A DNA stretch of 64,000 nt from NCBI GenBank assembly GCA_039795895.1, contig JBDKKW010000002.1:7347-71346 (forward strand), read 5' to 3'. Origin of the DNA: Candidatus Parcubacteria bacterium. GTDB taxonomy: Bacteria > Patescibacteriota > Minisyncoccia > Phycocordibacterales > JBAYGS01. This document shows, one piece after another, positions 39,132 to 55,854 of the stretch. Below the pieces are notes generated by a model that worked only from the letters and a program-made list of their open reading frames with translations, made no database searches and had not been told where the DNA came from. The position numbers were made by a program, and so were the translations under genes. The stretch's first letter is position 1. Each line of letters starts with the position of its first letter.

Positions 39132-39306
39132 TTTTTTCCTTTTCTTTCTTTGTTTGTTACAGTACCGCGCCAGAAAAAGCTCTAGCGTATTCCATTTACT
39201 ATTATACACATAAATACAAAGGTGTCAATAGATTCACTTTTCGCTTGCAATTACTCATAAAATATGCTATACTCTCCACAGATTCAAGCTCTGTCCCACG
39301 AAAATT

Positions 39307-39558
39307 ATGAAAAGATTCGCAAAGATCCTCGTGCTCACGATCATCCTGGCCTCGGTCGCAGTGGTCCACCACCATCACCGTAAGGAAATGGCACGGAAGC
39401 AGGCTATCGCGCAATTCCTCAAGTTCGTGAACGAGGAAATGCCGAAGCTCAACGAAGCAGACAAACGGCGAGGCTTCGTTGAATTCCCCGACATCCCCTT
39501 CCCGGTCATCACCGAAGAGGCCCCGAAGGTCCCCGCAAATGAGGCCTTCACCAAGTAG
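39307..39558 (+). CDS. Small secreted/membrane protein with His4 tract
   Basis: 83 aa with a signal-like N-terminus; terminator at 39573-39600. Confidence 0.5.
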   Translation: MKRFAKILVLTIILASVAVVHHHHRKEMARKQAIAQFLKFVNEEMPKLNEADKRRGFVEFPDIPFPVITEEAPKVPANEAFTK

Positions 39559-39572
39559 CACTCCTGCTACAC

Positions 39573-39600
39573 CCCACAGTCACTCTGTGGGTTTTCTTTT
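39573..39600 (+). terminator. Rho-independent terminator
   Basis: cccacagtcactctgtggg followed by ttttctttt. Confidence 0.65.
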
Positions 39601-39645
39601 TGAAAATTAAAACCGATCGATTTGGTCGAACGGTTTGTTGCAATC

Positions 39646-39903
39646 TCACTTCGCTTTCTTCTTTTTTTTCTTTGCCGGCACGACCACAAACTCACTGGGG
39701 TCATACCACGCCTCGTGTCCACCTTTGTGTTGCACCTTGTAGCACAAGCCGTGCGCATCACTGTGGGTAATGACGGTTCCCGTGATTTTCCACCGACGCT
39801 TTTCCCACGCTCCATCTGTCCACTCACTGCGCTTGTCGTGGTTGGGCTTGGTGGTTCGCACTGTGGTCCCGGGCGAAACGGGCGGATATTTCTTGGTGGC
39901 CAT
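39646..39903 (-). CDS. Small basic protein (85 aa), Lys-rich tail, hypothetical
   Basis: Likely start MATKKYPP at 39903; the C-terminus is AKKKKKKAK. Confidence 0.45.
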   Translation of the reverse strand: MATKKYPPVSPGTTVRTTKPNHDKRSEWTDGAWEKRRWKITGTVITHSDAHGLCYKVQHKGGHEAWYDPSEFVVVPAKKKKKKAK

Positions 39904-40135
39904 ACAGAATCCTTTCTTGTATTTATCTTGGTTGCAGAACAATTCAGACGAAAACGTAGCACACAATACCATACAAATCAAATGGGTCGACAGATGACTC
40001 TTGACAAACAATCTATAGTATGCTAGCTTGCAGACATCCGGAACTAATTTCGGAAAACTCAAGCGTAAGACGCATACTTAGGCGTTTTGGCATGGGAGCA
40101 CATCGAAAACAAAAAAGAAAGAAAAGGATAGTATT

Positions 40136-40615
40136 ATGAAAAAGCAAGCGTTCCTCGGCGGTTCATGCAACCCCACCGTCTGGCGTGCCGAGATCGCGAT
40201 CCCTGCCTTTTTGGCTGCGGGTGTCGCCTTCTACAACCCCCAGGTGGATGATTGGAACGAAAAGGACGCCGCCTACAAGGCCGCGGGCATTGTCGGAGGC
40301 ATCACGGAAGTCGAGGGCAACGAAAAGCGTGATTCGCAAGAACTGCTTTTCGTCATCGACAGTCAGACCCGGGCCATCGCCTCGATCCTCGAAGCGACCG
40401 AATATGCCGCGAGTGGTCGCCAGGTCACACTGGTGATCAACAACATCCCGGACGGCACAGTGGTCGAAAATCAGACCATCACCGGACGCGAGCTGAAGGA
40501 TCTGAATCGCGCTCGGTCGTATCTCCTGGATGTGGCCAAGCGCCACTCGGGAAACGTCAGCGTGTTTCCGGACGTCGAGAGCGCTGTCGCTCACCTCATC
40601 GAAAAACTCAAGTAA
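40136..40615 (+). CDS. Nucleoside 2-deoxyribosyltransferase-like (NDT-like) Rossmannoid protein, GC-rich
   Basis: N-terminal FLGGSCNPT (compare NDT YFGAGWFTD) and LLFVIDSQTRAIASILEATEYAASGRQV (compare GLGMELGYALSQGKYV, which carries the catalytic Glu). Its GC content is well above that of the flanks. Confidence 0.5.
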   Translation: MKKQAFLGGSCNPTVWRAEIAIPAFLAAGVAFYNPQVDDWNEKDAAYKAAGIVGGITEVEGNEKRDSQELLFVIDSQTRAIASILEATEYAASGRQVTLVINNIPDGTVVENQTITGRELKDLNRARSYLLDVAKRHSGNVSVFPDVESAVAHLIEKLK

Positions 40616-40740
40616 GCTTTTGTCTGCCTACGGGTAGACGAGAGCAAGTATGTTTCTGCCAAACTAGCTTTTGGTGGAAAGATACCGTCTGCCCTGCAGA
40701 CAAAACACCGTCGGCACATTTGTGCTGGCGGTTTTTTATT

Positions 40741-43587
40741 TTATCTTCCTTGAGAGAGTGTCGTTTCGAGTGTTTGTTCCAAACCTTGTAGGTCGGTGGC
40801 AATAATGTGCGACATCTTTTCTTTTGCTAACTTAAGAAAGGTAATAAAAAAGTCTCGATACACTTTATAGTCATCATTTTCTGCTAATTCTTGGCTTCCA
40901 AAATCTTTTTTCAAGAATTCTTGCAAAGTCTCAACTCCCATCTGACTCTTAAGAATCTCAAGAATCGCCTTATCGGGACTTGTCGCTGATAAGATTGAAT
41001 CAATATGAGGAACCAATGCACTTGCCACCTCAGCAAAACGTCCGGTGTCACTCACCAAAACCAACCCTGCGTTTCTTTTAAGCGCCTCATTGATTTCCAT
41101 AATACTATACAGACCTCCGTTGCCGACCACCAACACCTGCTTTTGTCCCACACTCATCCGGTGATACAGCGCCTCCATATACGCAATATGGGTAATATAT
41201 TTTGAAGTATATTTATCCAAACCCCTCTTATTCCACTCTGCTGGAATAGGTGTCACAAGAGTATCAACAGGGGTATTTGCATATACTGAACCATCACCTT
41301 CCGCAACAAACCTATTTCCTGGAAAGTAGACACTCCCTCCTGGATTGATGGCGAAAAAATGTGCGCGATCAGCGTGCGCCAAATGGCCATACTGCCTACC
41401 ATACTCGATGTTTAATTGCCCAAAGACCGTGCCTATTCCTGATTGTGTCCCTGGCACACCGACATTAGCCTTATGCGCATGAGCGACACGACCAACCGTG
41501 TCACCAAAGATTTGCAACGGATTCACGACCCCGTCCAAATGTTTACACCCACCAATAATATTAATCAGAGGCCTATCACGATCAATCCTCAATGCATCGA
41601 GACATGACTCCTCAATATGAAATGGAATAGTTTGACTAGGATCATTCAACCGATACTCAAGTGACACCATACGGGCAGTCACGCCTTGATTACTTACTGC
41701 CTCATCGAAACCAGTAGGACAGATCTTGCGAGCTCCTACGATAAATGCATCATCAAATACTACATCAGTGGTTTGCACCTCGGGAGAAAACTTTTCCTCA
41801 AAATGTCTCTGACTAAGAATATTTTTATAGAGGAAGGTTGAGTATTCCTCTTTTGCTTGTTCAAAAAGAGCAATCAGTGCGTTTGTAGAATCAGAGTCAG
41901 AAGGCGACTGTCTAACCTTATCATACAAACTGTTCGCGACCGCATATTTCTCAGAAACGTTATTCAATACAAAATGAAGACAATTTTCAATAGAATCAGA
42001 TACATACATGTCTTTCCGCAAGCTCTCTAGCGAGTTTGAAAAAGAGTGAAAAATTCGCAAAGCACTCTCGAGACCGTCGTACGATGCGCGATCAAACATC
42101 GGCATCCTCTCAAAAACACCTCTTACGTGTGGTGGTATATGCTTTTTCTCATTGATCAGTACTCGCGCAAGCACCGCATCATGCATAACCCCCACAAATG
42201 AATGTTGGTCGCCTTCCTTAGACTTTTTATATTGTCCGCGAAAGACCGCATATCGATCAGCCTCAGATGTTTGTCCGGTATGTGAGAGAAAATGGTGGAC
42301 CAATTTTACAATATTGTAATAATTAGGACTATTCAATATCTTCGATTCCACCTCATACGAATCAGTAGCGACTCGATTTGCCGAGTACCCAGATAATTCA
42401 ACCGACTCCTTTGTATAGATATAACCACTTATTAAGCTCGTCATCTCTTCTGCGAGTTGCATAATCAACACACACTCCTCTTTTGATTGAGCCTGTTCAA
42501 TGATACCGTCGGGAAGTATCCACCCGTTCTCAACAACACTACGCGCCACCGATGCGGGACCAGTTTTTTTTACATACTCAAAAAAAGTATTTTCGGCACA
42601 ACCTACTCGTGTCAAAAACTGCCCATCTTGATTCTGCTGTATTACACCAACAGTACCGCGTTCATTATTTGTTTTAGCCCGTTGAACTTTTAGTTCAGTG
42701 ACCGAATCAGCGTCGAGCCAATTTCCACGTTCAAATTCAGTAATTGTCGCATCATCAATCAAGCCATATGGTAGATGCGAATAAAAACCAGAAAAAGTGA
42801 TCGAGATACCGTTTGAATCCAACAAAATATGTGCTCGATCTTTGACGCGTAACGGCTCCGCTCTACGAGACATAAAAAGATGATTGATGATTCGGGCACG
42901 CTCACGACGAGCTTCGTGTATCAATTCCCCGCCCTCGAGTGTTCGAAGCGTATTAATACACTGTATAATCTTTTGTGGCTCAACACTTTTAAACTTTTTC
43001 TTAGTGAAAATTTCTTCGGGCACAAAACCCAGCTCACAAATAAGATCCTCAATTACTGTCGGATTATTGAACAGCGGATCAATCAAATCGATCCATTTAT
43101 TACTCTGGACATCGAGTATTCTTGCACACTCTTGTTGTAAATCGACTAGATATGTTTCTTGGGTGGTATTCGGGTTTTTATCCAAAAAAGAAAGTCTTTC
43201 GTATAATGCAACCGCACTTACTCCCTTGAGTGATTCTGGGGTCATTTGCGCAGGAACCTCCGTATCAACACCACTACCTGTACCTAGTGTCGACGACCAT
43301 TCCAACAACCCTCGCATAAACACTGCCTCAGCACTTTCCCCTTCAGCGACCAAATGGCGGAGATCTGCCCCTTTGTGTCCATTCAAGTGAGAAAGTAGTC
43401 TAATATTTTCCCCAACAACAGACTTTTGTTCTGGAGACAAAGCATCAAACCACGCATGGTCGACGGATTCGATGGTGACACCATCATCTCCCCGACTCAC
43501 ACCAAAAACAATATCATCTATTCGCGTATGCATATCCTGACTAACGGAATCATCAGCCGATGTTGTTGTAATTATCTTTTCAGGCAT
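40741..43587 (-). CDS. Large multidomain protein (948 aa) with C-terminal SLOG/LOG-like nucleotide-binding domain
   Basis: C-terminal motifs INIIGGCKHLDGVV (GGxxxG) and VVGNGGLYSIMEINEAL (PGGxGTxEE-like) suggest the LOG/SLOG/DprA Rossmannoid superfamily. The N-terminal 650 aa are unassigned. Confidence 0.6.
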   Translation of the reverse strand: MPEKIITTTSADDSVSQDMHTRIDDIVFGVSRGDDGVTIESVDHAWFDALSPEQKSVVGENIRLLSHLNGHKGADLRHLVAEGESAEAVFMRGLLEWSSTLGTGSGVDTEVPAQMTPESLKGVSAVALYERLSFLDKNPNTTQETYLVDLQQECARILDVQSNKWIDLIDPLFNNPTVIEDLICELGFVPEEIFTKKKFKSVEPQKIIQCINTLRTLEGGELIHEARRERARIINHLFMSRRAEPLRVKDRAHILLDSNGISITFSGFYSHLPYGLIDDATITEFERGNWLDADSVTELKVQRAKTNNERGTVGVIQQNQDGQFLTRVGCAENTFFEYVKKTGPASVARSVVENGWILPDGIIEQAQSKEECVLIMQLAEEMTSLISGYIYTKESVELSGYSANRVATDSYEVESKILNSPNYYNIVKLVHHFLSHTGQTSEADRYAVFRGQYKKSKEGDQHSFVGVMHDAVLARVLINEKKHIPPHVRGVFERMPMFDRASYDGLESALRIFHSFSNSLESLRKDMYVSDSIENCLHFVLNNVSEKYAVANSLYDKVRQSPSDSDSTNALIALFEQAKEEYSTFLYKNILSQRHFEEKFSPEVQTTDVVFDDAFIVGARKICPTGFDEAVSNQGVTARMVSLEYRLNDPSQTIPFHIEESCLDALRIDRDRPLINIIGGCKHLDGVVNPLQIFGDTVGRVAHAHKANVGVPGTQSGIGTVFGQLNIEYGRQYGHLAHADRAHFFAINPGGSVYFPGNRFVAEGDGSVYANTPVDTLVTPIPAEWNKRGLDKYTSKYITHIAYMEALYHRMSVGQKQVLVVGNGGLYSIMEINEALKRNAGLVLVSDTGRFAEVASALVPHIDSILSATSPDKAILEILKSQMGVETLQEFLKKDFGSQELAENDDYKVYRDFFITFLKLAKEKMSHIIATDLQGLEQTLETTLSQGR

Positions 43588-43726
43588 TATAAGGTTTATT
43601 CTATCAGCTCAACGTCTTTACGCCAATAATACCCGCACAGACAACCTAATGAAAAATCGACTTTGATTTTTTCTCCAAGTTTGATAGTATACGAGCGTTG
43701 CGTTGCAGAAGCATCACAACACCTAT

Positions 43727-43799
43727 TCCGTGGTAGCTCAGCTGGTAGAGCGCCTCGCTGTTAACGAGGATGTCCTTGGTTCGATCCCAAGCCACGGAG
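43727..43799 (+). tRNA. tRNA-Asn (anticodon GTT)
   Basis: TCCGTGGTAGCTCAGCTGGTAGAGCGCCTCGCTGTTAACGAGG...GGTTCGATCCCAAGCCACGGAG; 7-bp acceptor stem, anticodon loop CTGTTAA, discriminator G. Confidence 0.85.
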
Positions 43800-45503
43800 C
43801 AAAGTTGGACAGACCGAGGCAAAAACCTCGGTTTTGTCTTTATCTGCCTCACACAATCTAGGTTCGAACGCTTCATTTTGTGACTTTGCTGTAAGTAAGC
43901 CCTTAGAGATGATCGAGAACACATCTTTGTTGGTAATACTGAGTTTTTTAGTCTTTAGAATTAGGTTCGAACCGAGAGCCGACAATGCCTCTTGTTTCTC
44001 CTCAAAGGTGCCTGTACGGAAGATTTCACTCAGTCCGACGATCAACTTGAAGGCTTTCTTTGTTTCTTCAAAGTTCGCGGTATCAACTCCGCCAATGTCA
44101 GCGAGTACTTGCTTGATTCTACGCTTATCATTCTCAAGCGACTCTTTGTGTTTTAAGAATTCGTCGTCATTTTCAATAAGTCCCTTCATGCGCATGCGCA
44201 CCAATTCCTGAGACTCACGCTCTTTTTGTGCCAACTCTCGCTCCCATGTACCTTTACGCTCATATTCAGTTTGCCGATCTTGTGTAGCAAGGGTCTCAAG
44301 ATTTTGAATACACCACTGACTCAACGCTTCCGAAACCTCAAGTTTCTTTTGTAGCTCTTCAATCATTGTGTCGTCAATGTGTGACTCACTAACACTCCGC
44401 TCCGGACACGTTTCATCCCTTCGCTTGGTGCAGTGATAGAAAATATAATGAAGATAGGTCGGATGATCCATCTTTTCGATTTTAGTTTCGCACTTGGGGC
44501 ATACCTCACGATTTTTATACGCAAACTTAAATTTGCACTCAAAACAAATAAGTTGATGTTTATGCTCGGCGGTCACGGATCCACCGCAGGTACCACATTT
44601 CGTCCGGCCTCGGTACGGAAACATCTTGATGTTCACACTCGGACACGGCTGACCCTTTCGGCCCAGCATTGCTTGAATCTGCCAATATTGAGCCTCTGTG
44701 ATCATTCTCGGGACAGTCTCATCTACTTCATAGCGTTTAGATTCCCTGTTTTCATCCAATCCGTAAAAGAAACCTGCATAGTATGGGTCTTTAAGCATGG
44801 CATAAATTCGAGAGAGCTTGATAGCCGTGCCACCCTCTTTCTGCCGTCGAATTGTTTTTAATCCCATGACTTCATCAGAGTATTTGAGTAGTGACCGTAC
44901 AGAATATTTACCCGTTAGATACATCTCAAGAAGTTTCTTGACCAATGGAAAGCGATCGGGGTCAACCACGATGCGTCGCTCCCCTTTCTTTCCGTAATCG
45001 TTGATATAGCCAGGCTTTGCAATGCCACCAGGAATACCCATTTCATTTTTCTTGCGAAGGCCTCGCTGAACATCGATACCTTTTGAATCGTTTTCCATCT
45101 TTGCCTGGCTCGTAAGCATACTAAAGAAGAATTTATCTTGTGGTGTATTCCGATAAACCTGACTTGGTGTAACAATTTCGTGTAGGTGACCTTTATCCAT
45201 CTGCTCAATGAGTCGCGCAGCGTCGATGGCGTTTCGAGCAAAGCGATTTGGATGCCACCCGATAACTCCTTGTACTTTTTTCTGTTCAATGTCTCGGATC
45301 AATTGCTCAAAAACAGGACGCGTATAAGCCGTTTTTGCTGAGTGAGATTCGTGCAATATCTGATCATCAGAAAGGTGAATCTTTCTACTCTCAGCGAGCT
45401 TGCGTAGTTCATTGACTTGAGAATCAATCGACAGAACTTGTTTATCATCTGCCTCACTGGACTTGCGCGCATAAAGTCGATAGTTTATTTTTGTTGTTGT
45501 CAT
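43761..45503 (-). mobile_element. Large serine recombinase (resolvase/invertase N-domain, recombinase domain, zinc ribbon)
   Basis: YARKSS catalytic Ser region; recombinase domain; Cys cluster CGTCGG...CFECKFKF...CPKCETKI. The 3' end of the ORF overlaps the tRNA-Asn 3' half by about 39 nt. Confidence 0.85.
43812..43840 (+). terminator. Rho-independent terminator after tRNA-Asn
   Basis: ccgaggcaaaaacctcgg followed by ttttgtcttt. Confidence 0.6.
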
Positions 45504-45922
45504 AAATCAAAAAGTCTAAAATAATAAAGATAATATCCTCATACACTATCAAGATTTTCTTATGTAGTCTGCATTTTTGTGAAGAATTAATTAATAAATA
45601 CTGATACACGGCCGACCGCTCTTAGCCCCCACGAACCCACTCTCCCCCTACCCCCATGGTTGGTACCATTGGAGCTTCGCCGTGCCTTTGATCCGTTTTT
45701 TCTCGGAGGCGACTTGGTTTTAGTTGTGGTACCGCCTAGCGCAAGCGCTCCCGGCCCCGTACATAATTGCGTTAAAAACCTCTCGCTACACCGCAATTAG
45801 AGGTGGCTTAATGTTGTACCGATACCCGGCATCCCAATCTTGTGGGATCACAAAGCCTTCCTATGTCTATTTTATTTTTACAAGCCCCACATAGGTTCGC
45901 CCAGGGCTTGAATGGGCGTGCT

Positions 45923-46174
45923 CTATTGCACACTGGTATTTGCCACAAGAGAGTTTTCCTCTCTTGCTTGAACGAACGCCACCTTTGCATTCGCTCGAGC
46001 AAGAACAGAAAGTCCGACACGTGTCAGGCGCAACAAAGACATACCAAGCTCGACTGCTTGGTCATCAGAAATCGATACGCCGTTTTCGTTGAGTACGATT
46101 TCTTTTAATTCTTTTGTGGCTTTTTGTGACAACATAAAAAGACCCCTCAATCTTAAAGGGGGCTTTTCATTCAA
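45923..46174 (-). CDS. Small hypothetical protein (83 aa)
   Basis: ORF between the recombinase and the regulator; no motif identified. Confidence 0.3.
   Translation of the reverse strand: MNEKPPLRLRGLFMLSQKATKELKEIVLNENGVSISDDQAVELGMSLLRLTRVGLSVLARANAKVAFVQAREENSLVANTSVQ
46140..46172 (-). terminator. Rho-independent terminator for the regulator gene
   Basis: gccccctttaagattgaggggtc plus a T-run on the minus strand. Confidence 0.5.
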
Positions 46175-46194
46175 TATTCATTCATTAATATGAA

Positions 46195-46905
46195 TCAGAA
46201 TTTTTTATTCAACTCTAGCTTCCAGCCAGTCTTTGCTGAATTGAAAATAACCTTATGGCCAAAGGCTTCCTTCAGTCTTTTGTGTAATTCACTTACATAC
46301 TTTGCAACAGTTTGATTAGATATTCCCAACCGCTTATCTGAAGAGAAAATCTCATCTTTAATATCATCAATATTAACAACCTTCCCATGATTATTCATAA
46401 ATAATCGACAGAGGACAGTGAGTTGCCCCCTGAGGGAAACATCTTTTCCTTTATATTTAATTGAGCCATCGACACAAGCACTCAGATCGTAAATCTTTAT
46501 CTCATCTTTGATACGTGCTGTGCGTAATTGCCTTCTAACAATTTGTTCTTTAATCTCCTCAAAATAAAGATCTAACTTAGAAGAATCGTCCACATGTACT
46601 ACAAAGCCAAGTACAGACGGAGGTCGTGGTACAGGGAAAAAATTATCACGACTCGCCATGAGAGAACTACCTGGAGGTATACCCGCCTCAATAGAAGAAG
46701 TACACTCCCTAAAAGAAATGAGGTTTTTCGTCCCTTCACTAACCAACCCTAGAGTTTTTCTTAATCCGTCCCTATCTCTCAACAAAGGATCATCTTTAAT
46801 TCTATGGAAAATAAACTTAACTGATTCCTTGTCCGACCCTCTTAGTTCCATACGAAGAATCTCGTGCACTCTTTCTATCTTTAAAATTTGGAGGTCTTTT
46901 TCCAT
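46195..46905 (-). CDS. Transcriptional regulator with C-terminal OmpR/PhoB-type winged-helix DNA-binding domain
   Basis: C-terminal RLGISNQTVAKYVSELHKRLKEAFGHKVIFNSAKTGWKLE resembles the trans_reg_C pattern. The N-terminal domain is unknown. Confidence 0.6.
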   Translation of the reverse strand: MEKDLQILKIERVHEILRMELRGSDKESVKFIFHRIKDDPLLRDRDGLRKTLGLVSEGTKNLISFRECTSSIEAGIPPGSSLMASRDNFFPVPRPPSVLGFVVHVDDSSKLDLYFEEIKEQIVRRQLRTARIKDEIKIYDLSACVDGSIKYKGKDVSLRGQLTVLCRLFMNNHGKVVNIDDIKDEIFSSDKRLGISNQTVAKYVSELHKRLKEAFGHKVIFNSAKTGWKLELNKKF

Positions 46906-47036
46906 ATTTTTAATACTAATCTCTTTAGGCCCAAATATGCAAGCTTTCGCAAGAATTGATTGTACGAATTGCAGTTAAGATGTTAAACTTTACAATACAA
47001 CTGAATATGGCCTAACCCGTTGATTTTATCAACGGT

Positions 47037-47657
47037 ATGGCAATCAAAAGTCCTGGAAAGACACAAAAACCCCGTCATGGGTGTTGTCTTTCCAGGCCGT
47101 ATTGGGAAACTGGTACGCTCGGCGAAAGCCGAGGCCCCGTGGCGGGATTTTTGTGTACCTCACGGGTTTATCCATTAAAGATAAACCTCATGCAAGAACG
47201 CATTTTAAAAAAGGAGGACAAGCTCGTTTATTGGGCAGGCATCTTAAATCCTAAAAAAGGAAGTCTCGTATTAACGAATAATCGGCTTTATTTCACAGTA
47301 GATAACAAGGAGCTATTCTCTATTCTACTTAGCAATGTTTTGAGTGTGAATTGTCAAAAAGGAATTGGCACCAGTAATGAAAATATGTTCGTGATCTACA
47401 AAGATGGCGACAAAGAAAAGAAGGTCAAAATACAGCACAGTTCACTCATGTCTCTTGCCACTGTTGGTAATCTATCTCGAATTAGTGCTTCCTATTTCTC
47501 CTCATGGGAGCAGGCTATCAACTCAGCACGCTCAGGCAATCAGGACAACGAAAAAGGCTCGATAGATGATTTAGAGAGACTCTCAGAACTTAAAAAGAAA
47601 GGTATTTTAACTGAGGAAGAATTTTCTGCAAAAAAGAAGCAGATACTTGGCATATAA
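47037..47657 (+). CDS. SHOCT-domain protein with N-terminal PH/GRAM-like domain
   Basis: C-terminal LSELKKKGILTEEEFSAKKKQILGI matches the SHOCT motif. The likely true start is MQERIL at about 47190, since the upstream part of the ORF is a structured leader. Confidence 0.6.
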   Translation: MAIKSPGKTQKPRHGCCLSRPYWETGTLGESRGPVAGFLCTSRVYPLKINLMQERILKKEDKLVYWAGILNPKKGSLVLTNNRLYFTVDNKELFSILLSNVLSVNCQKGIGTSNENMFVIYKDGDKEKKVKIQHSSLMSLATVGNLSRISASYFSSWEQAINSARSGNQDNEKGSIDDLERLSELKKKGILTEEEFSAKKKQILGI

Positions 47658-47659
47658 AT

Positions 47660-48133
47660 ATGAAAAAGATTTATACATTCTTTCTGGCAATCCCCTTATT
47701 TCTCTCCACAACCCCCACCTTCGCCTCCACGCACTGTCTCTCCAACCAAGCACTGCCTGATCACACCTGTACCCCAGGAGCAATACTCACCACAGACGCT
47801 CTTATCGTCTGTGTCTCTGGCTACACTAAAACCGTCCGTAACGTTTCTACGGCAGTCAAAAAGATGGTATTCAAGGAATATGCTATTCCGTGGTCACTAC
47901 ATAGTAACTACGAAGTAGATCACTTGATTAGTCTTGAGCTGGGCGGAAGCAATGATGTTAGCAACCTATGGCCTGAATCGTACCTAATCAAGGATGGATC
48001 GCGTACCAAGGATACCTTTGAGAACTACCTCCATAGACAGGTGTGTGGAGGCAAATTGAGCCTTGTGGAGGCCCAGAAGGAGATCAAGGGAGGTTGGAGA
48101 GAGTATTATCGGGAGTGGAAGCACTTGAATTAG
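47660..48133 (+). CDS. Secreted HNH-family endonuclease
   Basis: Signal peptide followed by EVDHLISLELGGSNDVSNLWPE (HNH motif). Confidence 0.6.
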   Translation: MKKIYTFFLAIPLFLSTTPTFASTHCLSNQALPDHTCTPGAILTTDALIVCVSGYTKTVRNVSTAVKKMVFKEYAIPWSLHSNYEVDHLISLELGGSNDVSNLWPESYLIKDGSRTKDTFENYLHRQVCGGKLSLVEAQKEIKGGWREYYREWKHLN

Positions 48134-48807
48134 TTACAAGGATTTTTCTGTGTAAATTGCTTAACCAGAACTGAAAAATTACTCCACAGACTCGGATCAA
48201 CTTCTTGATCTCTCTTGATTAAACTCTGGATGTCTTTATTTTCCCATGTCTTTTGTATTTGATAACCAAAATCAGCGTTTATCATACTACACTCAACAAT
48301 ACCCTCCCGATAAAAGTTTCCCATTTCCTCAAAAACACCCAAATAATTTTCTACCTGACCCTTAGAAAATCCTGGGGCACCAGTCCGATTAAGAATTTTT
48401 GTACTTGGATCCGCCGAATCTAATTTATCTGAAATAGCTGAATAGGTTGGTTGGTTAAGCTGGGTATCAAAATTAAGCACAATATCGGAGGAATCCTTGA
48501 GATGATTCTCGTGTAGTTGATCCTTGGAAATCCAAACTGTCGCAAAACCAACAATTAATGCGATCATTACTCCTGCAATACTTATCCTATTGAGAGCCGT
48601 GGCCAATTTTCCAGCAGCATCACCACTCTCTTTTGCTTGTGCAGTAACAGCATCAAGAATCTTCTTGATCTCAACCATTGCGTTTTTTAATTCAAGTACT
48701 GACTTCGCAATGAGAACCGACTCGGATTTCTGAGCCCGAGTATCTCCACCTTCACTTACATACTCCGCCAATTGTTCAATGCTTTTACTAAAAAGATTTT
48801 CTGGCAT
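48130..48807 (-). CDS. Hypothetical membrane protein
   Basis: 225 aa with one transmembrane segment. Confidence 0.45.
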   Translation of the reverse strand: MPENLFSKSIEQLAEYVSEGGDTRAQKSESVLIAKSVLELKNAMVEIKKILDAVTAQAKESGDAAGKLATALNRISIAGVMIALIVGFATVWISKDQLHENHLKDSSDIVLNFDTQLNQPTYSAISDKLDSADPSTKILNRTGAPGFSKGQVENYLGVFEEMGNFYREGIVECSMINADFGYQIQKTWENKDIQSLIKRDQEVDPSLWSNFSVLVKQFTQKNPCN

Positions 48808-48982
48808 AAATATACTGGGTGAGTAAGGACTTGAATGAGACGTTGAAGATAAGTCATCATTTTATCATACCCCGCTCAGTTTCAGTTTCTTGCAAAAAGT
48901 GATTTGTGTCAAATTGCATCATCTAAATAAAAGCCTTAAGGACTTCTTGAGTACCCTAAATTTATTATGTAAATCAGCTATA

Positions 48983-49969
48983 TTAGTTGATCTTAAAATT
49001 AAATGGGTAAGGGATGTATTCTTTTACAAATTTCTCAAGTGACTTCATTTCCAAAGGCGAGAAGATAAAATTGAATGAATTGTGTGTTAAGTTATAATTA
49101 AAAATATCCACCATCTGTCTTGTGGAAGACGTGATCCTTTCCTCACACTCCTTTCGTCGATTTAGAGTTACCCCGAGATTTTTTGTTAAAGAAAAGAAAA
49201 CTTCTGTATGAGGGCTCAACAAACTTTTGGGGCTATTATAAAAATCAACCTTTTCCTTGGGTACAAAATAAACTACTGGATTATCGGAAGTTACAAAATA
49301 CCTAGAATCTGACTTTAAAATAGTGAGGTTCATCCTGCGTAATATTTCAGCAATGGGCTCAAGTTCCGTAAGGGCAGTTTTTAAAAAATACCCGTTTGGA
49401 TATTTTAGGTTATATCTTTTTTCAACGATATTCTTTTTTATCTTTTCGGCCTGTTCAAGAGATATCTCCTCCCCTGCCTCTTTTTTTGCCAAGCCAACAA
49501 TTTCTCCCGCAGACATTAGTTCAAATCTTTTGCTTGTATGATGCTTGGAAAGATTCGAGTCAATATCTTCAATTTGTGATTTAAAATGAGGAGTTCGTAC
49601 AAGCATGGCGGCCATAAACAAACACAATTCGTCCTTGATGTCTTCAGTAATCCTTGTATTTATAGCCAATGATTCAACCTTTCCAACCAGGGTGTTATAC
49701 GTATCTTCTCCACAATCTTTAAAAATATCTTCGACATCATCACTACTGAAACCTTCCATACCCGGATCATATAGATTATTCTCCAAACCTATGTTTTTTA
49801 AGCCTTCTTCACCGTTAATTAATAAAATTCGCTTTTCGAATGGAGAATTCTCTTTTAAAAACTTTTCACCCTTCTTGTACATAAAAAGATTACTCTCAAG
49901 TAAAAAATGTCTGAGATATGTTTGAGGAATATAATGATTTCGAATGGTTCTTTTCTTAATTTTAGACAT
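48983..49969 (-). CDS. DUF4238 family protein
   Basis: N-terminal HYIPQTYLRHF matches the DUF4238 signature (HYVPQFYLxxF); lies in an AT-rich segment. Confidence 0.6.
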   Translation of the reverse strand: MSKIKKRTIRNHYIPQTYLRHFLLESNLFMYKKGEKFLKENSPFEKRILLINGEEGLKNIGLENNLYDPGMEGFSSDDVEDIFKDCGEDTYNTLVGKVESLAINTRITEDIKDELCLFMAAMLVRTPHFKSQIEDIDSNLSKHHTSKRFELMSAGEIVGLAKKEAGEEISLEQAEKIKKNIVEKRYNLKYPNGYFLKTALTELEPIAEILRRMNLTILKSDSRYFVTSDNPVVYFVPKEKVDFYNSPKSLLSPHTEVFFSLTKNLGVTLNRRKECEERITSSTRQMVDIFNYNLTHNSFNFIFSPLEMKSLEKFVKEYIPYPFNFKIN

Positions 49970-50628
49970 AAATACAGTCTCTAACGTAGAAAAATCAATC
50001 GTACAACAATTCTTTTTAAAAAGACAGTTTTAGTGGATAGAGTTGCTATCCACAGGAAAATAAAGTAATATCTCGGACTCGAGATATAATAGAAAAACCA
50101 GCAGATCGTGCTTAAACAATAAGCTGGTTTTCCCTTTAGAAAAGGCTCAGGCTATGCTTGAGCTTTTTCGCTACCAATTTTCTTCCAAATTGGGAAACAT
50201 TTGGCCGACTTAGGTCGGATCACTTTGCCACTTTTCAATTTCTTGAAAGGTATGCAGGCGACCATGACGTAGCCCGCTCGAGTCTGTGTATTCACTGGAC
50301 TTTGTCCCTTTGATTTCAAGTAGCTTCTGCCAACCAAACATCGACCGGTATGGTTGCGACTATTATCCTACCCGACCTGCACAGGAACCAGCGCAGGCTT
50401 AGTGTGATAACACCACTTCAATCTCAAAAAGAAAAAGAACCCACTCCACAGGCCGATAAGATTTCTTATCAGCTGTGGATTAGGTTCTTTTCTTAAAAGG
50501 ACTTCTCTTTTAGCTAATAATGACTCCTGCCGGACTGTGCGTTCCATGTGGATTTTCCACTAGGAACACCTTGATTTTCTCTCGTTCTAGTAATAAAGTC
50601 AAGTGAAACAAAATGTATCTGAGGAAAC

Positions 50629-51240
50629 CTACCATCTCGATCCAAACTGACCACCTGCCACCGAGACCTTCCTACACAGCGCATCGTACCGCATCGCCCG
50701 CTTCGTTGGCTTTCCGGCATACTCCTGCCATCGAATCTCCATTGCAACATCTTCGAATTCCATGATCCTTTTAAACAAGGGCACAATACCGCGATAATTC
50801 ATCTTCTGAGACAAGTAGCATAGACCAAGACACGTCCTACATCTGAAATTATCACCATCCTGATACAGAATGCCTACTCGATGGTCACAAGATTGGCAAG
50901 CAAACCACTCACGCACACCCCCGTAGTGGCATTTGGTGGTCACGAGAGCAAATACATCACAGCTATTCTTGGGCCCGCGATTTATGAGCTTAAAATACCA
51001 ATCAAGCACGGCTGGATCCTTGACGAGCTTAAAACGGAGACCTTTATGATAAAAGCCTATCCGAGCAGTATAACCCGTTCTATCCAGAAATCCCTTCTTT
51101 TTGAACTCGGAGATATTGAGGGAAAGTCTCCCCTCCACCGTTCTGCGACCACCTCGAGGAACTGGTGCTAATCTTCGTGGTTCTATAGGGCCGAAATCAT
51201 TAAGGATTTCCTCTTCTTGATTTTCCATACATATTCTCAA
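50629..51240 (-). CDS. Hypothetical protein with zinc-ribbon Cys cluster
   Basis: CQSCDHRVGILYQDGDNFRCRTCLGLCY; likely start MENQ at about 51225. Confidence 0.45.
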   Translation of the reverse strand: MRICMENQEEEILNDFGPIEPRRLAPVPRGGRRTVEGRLSLNISEFKKKGFLDRTGYTARIGFYHKGLRFKLVKDPAVLDWYFKLINRGPKNSCDVFALVTTKCHYGGVREWFACQSCDHRVGILYQDGDNFRCRTCLGLCYLSQKMNYRGIVPLFKRIMEFEDVAMEIRWQEYAGKPTKRAMRYDALCRKVSVAGGQFGSRW

Positions 51241-51370
51241 TTAACCCCTAAATTAGGCCTATTTATCAAGCTTTTTTGAATGAGTCCTACTTCGCTTCGT
51301 AATAGGCTCCCGAAGTCAATTTTACACCATTTCTTTACATTCATTTGCTATGCAACAAAAGGCCTCACAT

Positions 51371-51390
51371 GGGCTGATTTTGACCCTTTT
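51371..51390. promoter_or_regulatory. Conserved 20-bp motif gggctgattttgaccctttt upstream of a minus-strand gene (second copy at 54531-54550)
   Basis: Exact 20-bp repeat with 4-5 further matching flank bases, in the 5' regions of genes 50629-51240 and 53955-54509. Confidence 0.5.
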
Positions 51391-51416
51391 AAACCTATCC
51401 TAAAACCCAACAAGGA

Positions 51417-51806
51417 CTACTCTTTCGGCAACTCTGGAAAGGTATTCTGATCCGGTTCAAATCCAGCTTCGACATCCAAAGCTTCGGTATCTACTCCTGA
51501 AGCCTCCAAAGAAGCTCGCATTCTGGTTCTCTCGGCACTCAGTGCAGTGAATTCTGCTTCAGTGAGCCAGCCTTGAGCCTTTGATGCAGTGCTGAGGGTT
51601 CGATTCTTTGCGGCCTCACTGAAAGCTCGAGTTGACTCAAGCCACTTTTTGCCAAGCCCGACATACGTCTTCTTAACACTCTCGAGTTGCTCTGGTGCAA
51701 TCGGCAAAACTGGAGGTTCTATAGTGTCATTAGCCTCTCCCATCTCCTGAGGAGGTAGTTCTGGCGCAGATGGTTCACCACCGAATTCAAATCCAAATAC
51801 TTTCAT
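51417..51806 (-). CDS. Hypothetical protein
   Basis: 129-aa acidic protein. Confidence 0.45.
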   Translation of the reverse strand: MKVFGFEFGGEPSAPELPPQEMGEANDTIEPPVLPIAPEQLESVKKTYVGLGKKWLESTRAFSEAAKNRTLSTASKAQGWLTEAEFTALSAERTRMRASLEASGVDTEALDVEAGFEPDQNTFPELPKE

Positions 51807-51924
51807 GGGGTTGGTATAGCTTTAACAATAAGGAATATTGTACACCCCGCAAGAGGGCGGAGCAAACACAGACCTGCACGCCAAACTGGACAACCTCCGG
51901 CATATTTCGTGCTACACTATTTTC

Positions 51925-52158
51925 ATGAAAAAAGTATCGATTGAAATATTCGGCTGGTACGGAACATGTGCGATCGTCCTTGCCTATATTTTGAGTAGCT
52001 TCTCGGTGCTCTCCCCAACTTCTCTTACCTATCAAATCTTCAACGTGACTGGCGCACTGGGCATTGTAACAATCTCACTTCACAAGAAAGCATATCAACC
52101 AGCGATCCTGAATATCATTTGGTGCACCATTGCACTCGTTGCGATTGTTCGAATGTAA
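51925..52158 (+). CDS. Small three-helix membrane protein
   Basis: About 77 aa from MKKVSIEIFGWYGTCAIVLAYIL. Confidence 0.4.
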   Translation: MKKVSIEIFGWYGTCAIVLAYILSSFSVLSPTSLTYQIFNVTGALGIVTISLHKKAYQPAILNIIWCTIALVAIVRM

Positions 52159-52219
52159 GCTAGGCGCCTGTAAATTAAAATCGGAGACCCTTACCGAGTC
52201 TCCGATTGAGTTCTTATAA

Positions 52220-52729
52220 CTACCGCCCCGGGATCCTGACCCTAAGACTCAAGGTCTCGCCACAACCAGCGTTCTCACCGTAATGTGGGTCATCGAATTC
52301 TACGAAGCCCATTGATTTGAAGTGCTCAATGATTCGCTTGGACTTAGGACGCCCAAGCGTGACACTTTCAGCAAGATACACATACTGCTTGGGCGCGGAG
52401 CAAGACAGATGTTCGAGAAACAGTCTCATGGCTTCTTCGCCATAACGCTTTCCTCTCCTGCTCGGCACGATGCCGTAGTAACGAAGACGAAGCACATCTG
52501 TAAATTCGCCGTATTCAAACCATCCAATGATACCAATCGGCATATCATCTTCATCGATCGAAAAAATCTCACCGAGAGACTCGCCTTCATACTCCTTCAC
52601 GCCCCATTGTTCGTAGCTTTCTCGAGCCTGATGTTGAAGCGCGGTAACTTCCCAGATTTTGTTTAGTTCAGGATGACGATCAAAAAGTGTCTGATTCTCT
52701 GGTAGTAACAGTTTTTTAATTGTGACCAT
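52220..52729 (-). CDS. GNAT family N-acetyltransferase
   Basis: GNAT motif A: VPSRRGKRYGEEAM. Confidence 0.78.
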   Translation of the reverse strand: MVTIKKLLLPENQTLFDRHPELNKIWEVTALQHQARESYEQWGVKEYEGESLGEIFSIDEDDMPIGIIGWFEYGEFTDVLRLRYYGIVPSRRGKRYGEEAMRLFLEHLSCSAPKQYVYLAESVTLGRPKSKRIIEHFKSMGFVEFDDPHYGENAGCGETLSLRVRIPGR

Positions 52730-52742
52730 AAGGTACTCCTTT

Positions 52743-53951
52743 CTAGTGTGAAATTACCATAATTTCATGAGTGTGCCTAGCCTTGTACCAAAAACACCCG
52801 ACTGCGGTTACCAGAGTTATCGTCCCTAAAGTGAGAAAGGTGCTATACGTGCCACCAATATCAGCGAGGAGACCTATGGTAATTGGCCCAACAATTGCTC
52901 CAATCTGTTCTGCACCAGCCATCAATCCCCCAACCTTTCCATAATTATCAGCACGCGAAGCTTTGGTCACAAGGGCCTGTAATGCAAGTGTCAAACAAAC
53001 AGTAAGGGTTCCCAAAATAAAGATACCGATAATCTGAAAAAGATACGTCTGAGCAAGCGACATTACTCCCAAGAGAACTGCGGTCACCAAAAGACTCACT
53101 GACACAAAAGTCCACTTCGATACCTTGTCGATATATGTTCCAAACCAAAATGCGAGAGTTGATGGAATAGCATAAATGACGGTGATGATGACGACATGAC
53201 TGAGATCATTTGATTTGGTATACACAAAAAGTGGTAAGAAAAAAGTACCTAGTGGATCGACGCAAGCGACAAAAAATGTGAGAAAAGTCAGTGTCCATAT
53301 TTCAGTTTTCCATTCGCGCATTCCACTGATTATTTTTAGCGGATTGAAAAAATATGTTGATGTCTTATTTTTTCTAATAGGCACCTCATCTTGTGGGGCT
53401 CGTGACATTACGAAGTACGCAATGATGGCCGTCACAGATATACCAAGGAAAAGCCAGTAGATGGGGATGCGGGTAAGAAATGGAATACTCACAAGTGCAG
53501 CAATCATCCACGTGAGATTTGGCAGTGAATGAAGGTATCCAAACGTTTTTGAAAGATGATACTCCGACGCAAAACGTCTGAGATAGGTATCACCACCGAT
53601 ACTGTCACAGCACCATACAACACCATTGATTGCTCGGGCTAATACTATGAAAAATGTCATTCCAAGCAAACCTGCTAGAAAATAACTGATACCAATGAGC
53701 GGATACAGAGCTAATGCAAAAAGAATAAGTTTCTTTGCGGGGATGCGATCACCGAGCATACTGACAAATGGCAATGCGAGTAGGAAGACGATGTCGTAAA
53801 TCGACCGAAGAAGTCCCGCTTCCGTATAGTTGTGTAATAAAGAAAAAAGAAGAACAGGAATCAGTGTCTCGCATAAGCCCCAGCCAAACCAACGGATACT
53901 GCGAGCGAGTGTAATCGTTTTGATACTTTTGGGAATGTGTGCTTGATCCAT
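52743..53951 (-). CDS. MFS transporter
   Basis: 402 aa with about 12 transmembrane segments and MFS-like loops. Confidence 0.75.
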   Translation of the reverse strand: MDQAHIPKSIKTITLARSIRWFGWGLCETLIPVLLFSLLHNYTEAGLLRSIYDIVFLLALPFVSMLGDRIPAKKLILFALALYPLIGISYFLAGLLGMTFFIVLARAINGVVWCCDSIGGDTYLRRFASEYHLSKTFGYLHSLPNLTWMIAALVSIPFLTRIPIYWLFLGISVTAIIAYFVMSRAPQDEVPIRKNKTSTYFFNPLKIISGMREWKTEIWTLTFLTFFVACVDPLGTFFLPLFVYTKSNDLSHVVIITVIYAIPSTLAFWFGTYIDKVSKWTFVSVSLLVTAVLLGVMSLAQTYLFQIIGIFILGTLTVCLTLALQALVTKASRADNYGKVGGLMAGAEQIGAIVGPITIGLLADIGGTYSTFLTLGTITLVTAVGCFWYKARHTHEIMVISH

Positions 53952-53954
53952 ATC

Positions 53955-54509
53955 TTAAAATGAATGATTGGTCATGCACAGTTCTCGAAGAATCTTTAAA
54001 GCTGCCTCTCGGTACGCTTCATTTTGACTTGAAGCTGTGCACTCTTCGAGAACGTAGGTAAAAAAGCCGAGGTCGAAAGATTCTTGTGCTGTAGCAAACA
54101 CACAATCATTTGTATCAATGCCAACGATGTGAACCTCCTCAATGTTGTTATCTTTCAAAATTTTAAACAAATCCTTTTCTCCTTTAAAGGCAGATTTTGT
54201 TTTCTTGGTTACGAGTACCGCCCTTTCATTAAGAAGCTGTTTAATATCGTGAGTAGTCGGCACCAACGGAAATGTCCAATGTGTCTGCCTGTCCCACAAG
54301 GAGCCTTTTTCTGCCGAAAATATAGTCTCAACAATGAGATCATAGCCTCCTTTTTCGATAACCTCTTTGATATTTGGAACAATCCATCGGCTTGTATCAT
54401 TCAAAAATCCTTCTTGTAAGTCGACAAGGATGAGAGATCTTCTCTTTTCTGGATGTGGGGTGACGATACTAGACATACCCAAAGTATACCAAAGATACGT
54501 GTGACACAA
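53955..54509 (-). CDS. Isochorismatase-family cysteine hydrolase
   Basis: LILVDLQEGF ... VHIVGIDTNDCVFATA pattern. Confidence 0.72.
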   Translation of the reverse strand: MCHTYLWYTLGMSSIVTPHPEKRRSLILVDLQEGFLNDTSRWIVPNIKEVIEKGGYDLIVETIFSAEKGSLWDRQTHWTFPLVPTTHDIKQLLNERAVLVTKKTKSAFKGEKDLFKILKDNNIEEVHIVGIDTNDCVFATAQESFDLGFFTYVLEECTASSQNEAYREAALKILRELCMTNHSF

Positions 54510-55013
54510 CTAACCTAAACAACCCCATCTGGGCTGATTTTGACCCTTTTGAGCACGTGTTTAGATCAAGATATGCCCAAGGAAATACCTGGGATGCTAC
54601 TGATTCTTGAGTTCAAAGCATACGTTCTGACCTCGTGAATCATTCGGAGCAACCCACATAAAACAGTGTCCTTTGGGGACGCTGTTTTTTGCTGATGTTG
54701 CTCCGCGGAGCAAGCCGACTAATCGGCTTGCGTCTTGGGATCGAACAGTGGAGCAATGTTTTCTACCAAGAAAAACGGGCGAGCTGATACCCAGACTTTG
54801 CTGAGTGACGACGAAGCAAAAGTCACGGGCGATACCAATAAAACATGGAGCACTATTTTAGTCCATGCTTCCCAACGAATTTTTAGAGGCAGTAGAACAG
54901 GTCACTTAATAATGTACGTAAATTAATAAACCTCACGTCACCATTGATAGACCTCTGGCGTTGTGCTACCGTTAAAACAGTAGTTCTTTAAACCGCATGG
55001 AGAAGTAATACCC

Positions 55014-55826
55014 GTGCACAATCCTGGAGAAAATATGCCAACTATTACGGACAGCCAAGTGGTGATTGATCAGATCAATGCAGATGGAATATTGTACCTA
55101 AAAAGCCGTCTGTCGTGGGAACCAGTAATACCCGATATCCGTCCCCGCAGTGACGACACTCCAGAGACAGCATTGATTGATGCATACCTGGAAAGCCGTA
55201 ATGATTTCAAAGAACGGTTGCGTACACTTATGCGAGAATTGCTCACAGAGCTGTGTCAAAGTAGGCATTCTGGTACCGAACCCTGGGCCGGACTTCTCTT
55301 TCCTCTCATCGCTGGAACACGGATGGAAGGAGTGGAAGACTTGCTCGTGGACCTGCTCGATCGAGAAATCTCACGCCTCCCAAGCAAAAATCGCTGGCTA
55401 CGCCGATTCCAAAAGCTTGCGCCTTGGCGTAAGTCTGACTGGTGGAGACTGCCTGGCCCATACAAGGACTCACTACTGTTGGAACTAACAGTAGCACTGC
55501 GGGCCGTAGAAAAAGTGCCCAAAGCCCGCTGGATTCCACTTCTCGAGGATCCCCATACAGCCGGGGCAGCGTTCGGAGCAATCACCGAGGCAGACACTAC
55601 AATAGGTCTAGTGCATTTCCACACCCTAATGGAGACAGCATTAAAGTGGCCCGAGGAAACTCCTTTGTGTATGTGTATTTGGTGCTTCATAAGCGCGTCG
55701 GGTCAACAAGGAAGAGGTGGCAATCCAGCCCTCGCACTCTTGGATCGGGCAGGTAGCGTAAAAGCCCGGACATTGGTAATGAAGGAGCTTCGGACAATAC
55801 CGTCAGCCGCCCATCTGATTCCCTAG
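55014..55826 (+). CDS. Hypothetical protein (moderately GC-rich)
   Basis: 270 aa; terminator at 55855-55890. Confidence 0.5.
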   Translation: MHNPGENMPTITDSQVVIDQINADGILYLKSRLSWEPVIPDIRPRSDDTPETALIDAYLESRNDFKERLRTLMRELLTELCQSRHSGTEPWAGLLFPLIAGTRMEGVEDLLVDLLDREISRLPSKNRWLRRFQKLAPWRKSDWWRLPGPYKDSLLLELTVALRAVEKVPKARWIPLLEDPHTAGAAFGAITEADTTIGLVHFHTLMETALKWPEETPLCMCIWCFISASGQQGRGGNPALALLDRAGSVKARTLVMKELRTIPSAAHLIP

Positions 55827-55854
55827 CCTTCTTAAAATTGACGGAAAGTAACAT

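Follow-up and report, generated by a model that had tools for sequence, protein, structure and literature searches.

The question raised by this 64-kb stretch of a Candidatus Parcubacteria metagenome-assembled genome (MAG) from the candidate phyla radiation (CPR), here called the window and numbered from its first position, is why the open reading frame (ORF) of a large serine recombinase (LSR) should end inside a tRNA gene. The tRNA-Asn(GTT) gene lies on the plus strand at 43727–43800 (ARAGORN; Rfam tRNA 43727–43799, 67.4 bits), and the 580-residue LSR is encoded on the minus strand at 43761–45503. The overlap with the 3′ half of the tRNA, reported in the initial annotation, is confirmed by ARAGORN, Rfam, Pfam and the ORF coordinates and amounts to 40 nt, with the TAA stop (43761–43763) falling on the anticodon loop. 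The explanation that we consider probable is that a 10.85-kb cargo element was inserted by its own LSR at the 3′ extremity of tRNA-Asn, using an attachment site (attP) that lies inside the LSR ORF. The overlap would exist because of this location of the site: integration would swap the last 25 codons of the recombinase for antisense tRNA, leaving the target tRNA intact and the LSR in the integrated (attL) form seen in the window.

By virtue of its Resolvase, Recombinase and zinc-ribbon domains, the enzyme belongs to the LSR superfamily. Resolvase (PF00239) is matched with an E value of 5e-21 and Recombinase (PF07508) with 28 bits against a cut-off of 21.1; Zn_ribbon_recom (PF13408) scores 21.4 bits, under its cut-off of 25.3. 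The CxxC pairs C303/C306, C320/C323 and C335/C338 are invariant in homologs, and R13, S15, Q22, R62, R87 and R90, which include the catalytic Ser15 and Arg13, are invariant in 42 homologs. Matches in the PDB are to the catalytic domains of TP901-1 and of a conjugative-transposon recombinase, and the likeness of the sequence to solved LSRs is confined to that domain. The protein is 100% identical to the NCBI MAG protein P0001 (RLZZ347_201).

The last 12 residues of the LSR, LRGLGSNQGHPR, are the antisense of the tRNA 3′ half (43761–43799). More than 1400 homologous proteins of ∼570–580 residues share the ending ...FEP-x21-TLL(R/P), and the conservation stops at TLL(R/P), the codons of which are the final few tRNA nucleotides. 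The following 10 residues, GLGSNQGHPR, are by this comparison incidental read-through. The suspicion that the ORF of homologs might end before the tRNA is thus answered in between: conservation does reach the last nucleotides of the tRNA, and only the 10-residue tail beyond is incidental. Past TLL(R/P), the homologs end in one of three ways, at a stop, in an antisense T-loop peptide (DSNL, DSNP or GSNQ) or in x-L-x-D-V-R-T-(Y/F). The third type of ending was therefore sought in the window and led to the right attachment site, attR, at 54.6 kb, where the minus strand (54,566–54,652) reads ...LLRMIHEVRTYALNSRISSIPGISLGIS up to a stop codon. The displaced C-terminal tail of the LSR, MIHEVRTYALNSRISSIPGISLGIS and a stop (54566–54643, minus strand), forms the P arm of attR (LLR|MIHEVRTYAL...). 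The attR fragment ...LLRMIHEVRTYAL... agrees with how intact homologs end, for example in TLLRMLNDVRTY, and when the LSR and the displaced fragment are joined, a 595-residue protein ending in LLRMIHEVRTYAL... is obtained, like the intact homologs P0022, P0023 and P0098. Both junctions carry the identical core CGGAGCAA, at 43795–43802 in attL and, 10,850 bp away at the right end of the element, at 54645–54652 in attR. Within the LSR, the core corresponds to codons TTG CTC CG- of ...LLR. Taken by these sequence signatures, the island spans 43,795–54,652 (10,850 bp).

The right boundary is supported by further observations. When a profile built from 29 P arms of other loci was run over the whole window with nhmmer, positions 54652–54612 ranked first (E 0.0019) and 55927–55888 second (E 0.0084), the next matches being motif copies within the LSR gene. 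An independent assembly, Logan contig L179, is contiguous and 99.99% identical over 46,020–54,788; as it spans attR, the junction is not a misassembly. AT-rich segments were remarked on in the initial annotation, and the GC content of the island as a whole is lower, at 0.418 against ∼0.45–0.47 in the flanks. A direct repeat of the tRNA 3′ segment was expected in that annotation. Within the window, this 22-nt segment occurs only once, even with up to 3 mismatches allowed, and exact-word matching yielded motif copies only; what is repeated is the 8-bp core at 54,645–54,652. The absence of a long tRNA repeat is expected, because the recombinase is of the serine type and the common core is 8 bp. 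The core, the displaced tail and the P-arm profile all place the boundary at 54,645–54,652 and not at 51,300, as had been proposed for an island of ∼7.5 kb, and the GNAT, MFS and isochorismatase genes therefore become members of the island.

Additional copies of the core 8-mer are present on the plus strand at 51858, 52396 and 55574, bringing the total on this strand of the window to 6 compared with 0.7 expected. These three were considered as boundaries and rejected, since the flanking arm motifs are absent, and are taken as unexplained or chance occurrences. Separately, Logan contig L176, which corresponds to 32891–43784 of the window and comes from the same strain, ends inside the tRNA T-loop directly after GGTTCGA. 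Other tRNA-Asn genes of the sample probably made the de Bruijn graph branch here, and the end is not counted as evidence for polymorphism of the site.

To place the window among its relatives, species-representative genomes were scanned for LSR homologs. The resulting 80 loci come from CPR groups as well as Bacteroidota, Verrucomicrobiota, Omnitrophota, Aminicenantes and others. An opposite-strand tRNA overlaps the LSR end in 28 of them (ARAGORN), the tRNA species being Asn in 12, Gln in 7, Ser in 3, Trp in 2 and Glu, Leu, Lys and Gly in 1 each. In two more loci, L002 (11099–11340) and L007 (11736–12031), the LSR tail DQDSNLEPTPYT runs into the 3′ exon of a target tRNA that was missed by ARAGORN because a group I intron interrupts it (RF00028, 72–79 bits). 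Overlap between LSR and tRNA is thus, as far as these genomes are concerned, a trait of the family, found in at least 30 of the 80 loci. A displaced tail on the LSR strand occurs in 10 loci besides the window, giving element lengths of 6.2–11.6 kb, and L019 is an eleventh candidate outside the mapped set; in 4 loci, the window included, the tail is present twice. An overlay of 14 attL/attR pairs gave blocks of identity of 4–9 bp, all of which cover attP coordinates 70–72. Because every block covers these three positions, the crossover is placed at CTC in the coding orientation (GAG at 43797–43799, tRNA position ∼71–73). Consistent with this location, homology between L085, where the tail is intact, and four fused loci ends at the end of the core or a few bases off. 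The fused state is common, being found with intact ORFs in 94 of the 120 top homolog clusters.

Sequence comparison places attP in the 3′ end of the LSR ORF, and the tRNA stays intact because the crossover falls inside GAG (tRNA ∼71–73) of the 8-bp core. The recombinase retains residues 1–570, its last 25 codons have passed to attR and the antisense tRNA adds a tail of 10 residues. The predicted attP junction is GTGAATCATTCGGAGCAAAGTTGGACAG and the predicted attB junction is CCAAGCCACGGAGCAACCCACATAAAAC; in an element-free tRNA-Asn gene, ...CGGAGCAA would be joined to cccacataaaac. The element also supplies the tRNA with a terminator hairpin, which is encoded within LSR codons, and a second, decayed junction 1.3 kb further on shows repeated use of the site.

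How such an enzyme might recognize its target is suggested by a short motif that recurs around the crossover. The word GTT(C/A)GAAC(C), palindromic and equal to the T-loop consensus (GGTTCGA), encodes the peptides GSNL, (F/L/I)EP and VRT in frames 0, 2 and 1, respectively. In the window, the copy M1 (GTTCGAAC, 43965–43972) encodes the invariant G-S-N-L, M2 (also GTTCGAAC, 43862–43869) the invariant F-E-P, and M3 (GTCAGAAC, 54624–54631, in the P arm, 13 nt from CTCCG) V-R-T, and the T-loop DNA of the tRNA, GGTTCGATCC, is at 43778–43787. Codon usage was examined in 64 loci picked by protein pattern alone, with the DNA motif unused in the selection. Serine is encoded by TCG in 64 of 64 loci, compared with 12.6% elsewhere in the same genes, asparagine by AAC and glutamate by GAA in all 64 and proline by CCT in 54, while the residue ahead of E-P changes (F, L, I) over a constant T(C/A)GAACC. 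Frozen synonymous sites, together with a variable residue over constant DNA, indicate that selection acts on the nucleic acid.

The spacing of the copies is also fixed. M1 and M2 are 103 nt apart wherever the pair is found, M2 and M3 are 88 nt apart in 15 of 15 loci with an intact tail (M3 at +88 in L015, L021, L023, L034, L043, L054, L060, L062–L064, L066, L067, L072, L077 and L080), and M2 and the T-loop copy are 83 nt apart in 27 fused loci. Counted from CTCCG, M3 begins 13 nt on and the T-loop copy 8 nt on in all loci examined; with the crossover set in CTC, this corresponds to bp ∼17–25 for M3 and bp ∼12–20 for the T-loop. The zinc-ribbon domain of LSRs binds a 7–9-bp motif situated at bp 16–24 of attP half-sites and at bp 11–19 in attB (PMC3783163, Rutherford et al.). 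As the 83/88-nt shift equals this 5-bp offset between attP and attB, we infer that the clade uses T-loop DNA as the outer motif of attB and M3 as that of attP. The zinc-ribbon domain would then read the T-loop DNA (GGTTCGA) as the B-arm motif of the attB half-site and the identical motif, placed 5 bp further out, as that of the attP half-site, the offset being the layout that confers attP × attB selectivity on canonical serine integrases. Since the T-loop is common to all tRNAs, such a mode of reading may also explain how relatives could switch among at least eight tRNA species. M1 and M2 lie 174 and 71 nt from the crossover, too distant for half-site motifs; they are probably accessory or regulatory sites to which the recombinase binds.

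A second function is embedded in the same coding sequence. Directly 3′ of the tRNA, at 43807–43839 on the plus strand, an intrinsic-terminator hairpin followed by TTTTGTCTTT lies antisense to the LSR codons for ...KTEVFASVCP...; it has 13 bp, a folding energy of −18.3 kcal/mol and a z score of −3.9 (terminator scan and folding). Across 11 members of the clade, 8 of the 13 pairs are altered on both sides, a degree of covariation matched by none of 500 shuffles, and slid controls collapse. The G·U pairs are valid solely in the sense of the tRNA, and the peptide variants DTFVSV, ESFDSV and DALASV of the LSR are the compensatory changes of the hairpin as translated. Host-side arms of attR in L004 and L011 likewise have tRNA terminators. 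The element therefore substitutes its own terminator for that of the host.

Adjoining attR on the right is a remnant of ∼1.3 kb of an older element (54653–55930, minus strand; tblastn, nhmmer and sequence). It starts with a decayed LSR 3′ end (54653–54750, minus strand; tblastn), which reads FDPKTQAD, a stop and, further on, QKTASPKDTVLCGLLR, and which has a terminator-like hairpin of its own. It continues with an orphan ORF of 270 codons (55014–55826, plus strand) and ends in a second P arm, attR2 (55888–55930, minus strand), with GTCAGAAC at 55899–55906 and the second-ranking profile match given above. The simplest reading is one of tandem accretion, in which the present element was inserted beside the tRNA while an earlier relative, whose recombinase has since been lost, remained in place. 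The site at 54,734 was considered as a convergent inverted tRNA remnant and rejected, as it is the M2-like FDP motif of the decayed LSR 3′ end.

The same tRNA locus is occupied differently in related organisms. In an 84%-identical relative from Hainich groundwater, tRNA-Asn adjoins EngB in the same orientation and is overlapped by an unrelated LSR of 513 residues that stops at the same anticodon-loop TAA. The island of this relative (L171/L172, 10661–20430) measures 9.7 kb and has a 19-bp repeat of the tRNA as its boundary, with a Type III restriction-modification system as cargo; in a sister sample, other cargo is found behind an identical EngB (L086, L171/L172 and L174 compared). The tRNA-Asn site is thus a hot spot for serine-recombinase elements in the lineage. 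In the window, EngB (62023–62622) is 18 kb from tRNA-Asn and on the opposite strand, and a 95%-identical relative has the window's arrangement of EngB and a 191-residue protein without the tRNA. We read this as either a rearrangement or a larger composite island between tRNA-Asn and EngB; remains of earlier islands may be present in the broader region that reaches to 62.0 kb.

Several observations do not sit easily with integration by the resident LSR as proposed here. Neither an empty attB nor a circular attP junction was found. Neither the LSR nor the 270-residue ORF was recovered elsewhere by exact look-up, the contexts of EngB and SLOG-protein homologs gave no unoccupied tRNA-Asn, and the Logan contigs of SRR35181295 show the integrated state only. 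A metagenome scan with the tRNA-Asn 3′ half recovered one contig (L086/L171), which is occupied by the other LSR element. The related genome with an empty site that the initial annotation had called for was thus not met with in any of these searches. A circular form was sought in L085, the contig with an intact tail, but its ends do not overlap and the cargo past the tail is unlike that of integrated relatives. Furthermore, 15–17 loci, mostly from outside the CPR, retain an intact attP-type tail in chromosomes of megabase size and are unaccounted for by the simple model. The H arm, on the element side beside the LSR, has no motif at the attP-type distance of bp 16–24; it has GTTCGTCC/GTCTGTCC at bp 9–16, and the half-sites of attP do not form similar inverted repeats, which makes the site less symmetric than textbook LSR sites. 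The role of M1 and M2 is only putative, and the synonymous-site statistics count related sequences as independent. Lastly, recognizable transfer or replication genes are absent from the element (Pfam, PADLOC and PHROG scans).

The intact-tail chromosomal loci sit in regions rich in other mobile elements. The neighbors in L023 are a TrwB/FtsK-like ATPase, DUF932, a C5 methylase, a reverse transcriptase and insertion sequence elements, and a second copy of the P arm is located 1–2.2 kb downstream in L062 and L066. One CPR relative with an intact tail is found on a 22–46-kb contig with TraG/TrwB/VirB4-like genes.

Could the element be a fossil, with real junctions and a tail-swapped LSR that is inactive or domesticated? 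The missing excised form and empty site, the lack of transfer and replication genes and the decayed older copy next to it would all be explained in this way. The LSR is nevertheless full length, with every invariant catalytic and cysteine residue present, attL and attR have the same core and the P arm has hardly decayed. In addition, cargo varies among close relatives, which together with the 94 fused and intact homolog clusters favors ongoing turnover, and we regard a fossil as unlikely. A different objection concerns the GTTCGAAC motifs, which might be selected at the level of RNA or protein, as a T-loop mimic or a peptide motif, with the 83/88-nt spacing a by-product of a captured tRNA fragment. 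Identity to the T-loop consensus, the distance of M1 and M2 from the crossover and the missing symmetric copy in the H arm are compatible with this idea. Maintenance of an 8–10-mer in three frames that specify differing peptides, with frozen synonymous sites, excludes selection on the protein, whereas selection as an RNA is opposed by the lack of a T-arm-like stem around M1 and M2. As the 5-bp offset also fits the position and size of the motif bound by the LSR zinc-ribbon domain, this alternative appears quite unlikely.

The extent of the island has been the other point of contention. The whole of 43.8–62.0 kb, from tRNA-Asn to EngB, could be one composite island of which the 10.85-kb element is the newest layer. 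The direct contact of tRNA-Asn with EngB in the 84%-identical relative, their separation and inversion in the window and the older layers marked by attR2 point in this direction, as does the rarity of the left neighbor of the tRNA, a SLOG protein described below. The 95%-identical relative, on the other hand, shares the EngB arrangement without any tRNA, P-arm signatures are absent to the right of 55.93 kb and GC is host-like over 55.9–64 kb, so that we consider a composite of this size doubtful. A mosaic island of ∼7.5 kb that ends near 51.3 kb in an undiscovered direct repeat of a tRNA fragment would agree with the AT-rich segment at 48.9–50.1 kb and the rise in GC after 50 kb. It is made highly improbable by the displaced LSR tail at 54.6 kb; there is also no repeat of the tRNA 3′ end within the mismatches allowed above, no P-arm signature near 51.3 kb and no arm motif beside the CGGAGCAA copies at 51858 and 52396. 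Integration of a 10.85-kb element by its own LSR therefore remains the preferred reading, and the earlier view that a serine recombinase placed an element at tRNA-Asn is supported.

Upstream of the LSR and on the same strand is a small ORF (45923–46174, minus strand), which probably starts at Met14 and encodes ∼70 residues. Its homologs occupy the corresponding position in at least 29 loci, which belong to several phyla, and a large protein library holds 36 representative clusters of them. They share the motif LS.EAIEEFK.IY..EFG..LSDDEAQE.G..LLR, and a two-helix hairpin is predicted for the protein (AF2 from a single sequence, pLDDT 88.7). No match in Pfam, among PDB sequences or by fold was found, nor any likeness to known directionality factors. 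If the system has a directionality factor or a regulator, this partner may be the best candidate. The next gene (46195–46905, minus strand) encodes a protein of 236 residues with homologs in L002 and L005, either cargo or a regulator. It had been described as a winged-helix regulator; a C-terminal Trans_reg_C match is indeed present and is weak, below threshold (E 3e-5, 24.3 against 26.2 bits).

The structured leader noticed ahead of the SHOCT gene turned out to be the Rfam LOOT RNA (RF03000; 47009–47133, plus strand, model positions 1–121). It scores 84.4 bits, the Rfam gathering threshold being 46.4, and lies 57 nt ahead of the gene. LOOT RNA was found in 9 of 12 examined elements, that is, in the window and in 8 of 11 relatives (L002 7741–7856, L004 7358–7476, L005 8251–8366, L007 7666–7781, L011 8169–8286, L012 6339–6463, L019 7886–8007 and L085 1324–1439). 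It is always inside the element, and the genes that follow it after 55–80 nt are variable and encode secreted or membrane proteins; this placement suggests a cis-acting leader. In the literature searched, nothing usable on LOOT RNA was found.

The remaining cargo begins with the SHOCT-domain protein (47190–47657, plus strand), for which, as for the DUF4238 protein (48983–49969, minus strand), the earlier assignment is borne out by Pfam; PHROG 2700 was reported for the cargo at 47190–48133. The secreted protein of 157 residues that follows (47660–48133, plus strand) had been called an HNH nuclease, and the HNH part of this description comes down to a weak motif match (E 0.03). A DUF4760 protein (48130–48807, minus strand; Pfam) precedes the DUF4238 gene. 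To the right are a Cys-rich protein of 203 residues (50629–51240, minus strand), a protein of 129 residues (51417–51806, minus strand) and a membrane protein of 106 residues (from 51838, plus strand). The Pfam scan of 51838–54509 then identified GNAT (52220–52729), MFS (52743–53951) and isochorismatase (53955–54509) genes, all on the minus strand. Genes for a relaxase, a coupling protein or type IV secretion were not found in the element. No PHROG match of structural function was obtained either, and the element does not qualify as a prophage; as the viral contigs of IMG/VR also hold only distant LSR relatives (≤36% identity), a viral origin was rejected. A defense island was likewise rejected, the only PADLOC match being DUF4238-Pers (E 7e-7).

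Outside the element, the tRNA has two neighbors on its left, a 948-residue protein with a prokaryotic SLOG (LSDAT) domain (40741–43587, minus strand), with only 12 homologs among 5.8 billion proteins, and a nucleoside 2-deoxyribosyltransferase-like protein (40136–40615, plus strand). The pair is typical of nucleotide-centered conflict systems and may itself be accessory. Two divergent tRNA-Ala genes, GGC on the minus strand and TGC on the plus strand, are found with 80 nt between them at 16996–17225, adjoined by a low-GC region at 17–19 kb.

The architecture of Resolvase, Recombinase and zinc-ribbon domains is the same as in the canonical LSRs (A118-LI, Bxb1, phiC31, TP901-1 and SPbeta SprA), and so is the 7–9-bp outer motif, 5 bp nearer to the center in attB (PMC3783163). 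The core is equally short; here 8 bp are identical, the crossover is located within 3 nt and a dinucleotide of 2 bp is assumed by analogy. The system differs from the canonical ones in its use of a tRNA 3′ end as target with a T-loop outer motif, in having attP within the recombinase ORF, in the two extra motif copies 103 nt apart and in its asymmetric element-side half-site. LSRs normally need no accessory sites. Multiple motifs at fixed spacing beside the crossover recall the res sites of Tn3 and gamma-delta resolvase, which serve as an analogy for M1 and M2 only, as the spacing is much larger here and binding by the LSR is putative.

The tRNA-Asp locus is the integration target of myxophage Mx8. 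Among tyrosine recombinases, those of Mx8 and of SSV-type elements are known to reach across attP (PMC4383910, PMC6070905, PMC8371274). In Mx8 IntP/IntX, the int coding sequence contains attP, and the gene acquires a new 3′ end upon integration (PMC6070905). In contrast to the present system, Mx8 uses a tyrosine recombinase, which has a different chemistry, and a long attP, and a large C-terminal segment is replaced with a change in activity or specificity, whereas only ∼25 non-conserved residues are exchanged in the LSR. The 'suicidal' integrases of the SSV type, described as exclusive to archaea, also have a recombination site in the integrase gene and a tRNA target (PMC8371274). Theirs is a tyrosine recombinase that is split into inactive halves, and the bacterial serine recombinase is left essentially whole. 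Islander islands and tycheposons likewise consist of cargo at an intact tRNA 3′ end with the integrase beside the tRNA and tandem remnants, and 27 of 937 tycheposons carry an LSR. Of the features that define Islander islands, the intact tRNA and an integrase inside the island are present in the window, and the displaced tRNA fragment and a tyrosine integrase are absent. Where those islands have a displaced repeat of a tRNA fragment and almost always a tyrosine integrase, here an 8-bp repeat and a displaced piece of the integrase gene are found.

A description of the clade was not found in the literature searched, the coverage of which is incomplete. Tentatively, the features may be linked in a large, undescribed clade of serine integrases, with the window as its type example, that read the T-loop, so that only a few core bases in the acceptor stem set the target; attP, terminator and motifs would be overprinted on the coding sequence, M1 and M2 would be res-like or autoregulatory sites, and the tail swap would control directionality together with the ∼70-residue partner. 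We hold this linked picture to be possible rather than likely.

The stretch of ∼300 nt that combines coding sequence, attP, three motif copies in three frames and an antisense terminator would constitute a natural system of overlapping codes, in which the terminator may shield the recombinase gene from tRNA read-through. For the mapping of islands, the rule that follows is to seek the displaced integrase tail (x-L-x-D-V-R-T, or GTTCGAAC) and not a repeat of a tRNA fragment. LOOT RNA, an orphan in Rfam, becomes linked to a defined mobile element, as does a new family of small proteins. Recognition of the T-loop offers a testable model for target hopping by serine integrases and points to candidate enzymes for inserting DNA at native tRNA genes; if true, these naturally occurring integrases could act on tRNA genes of any organism with no landing pad installed beforehand. 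The mobile elements of the CPR are barely known. Tyrosine integrases classically target tRNA genes, and specification of such genes by serine integrases has been denied (PMC4383910). A clade with over 1400 members, mostly from the CPR, that appears to target tRNA genes systematically would fill this stated gap.

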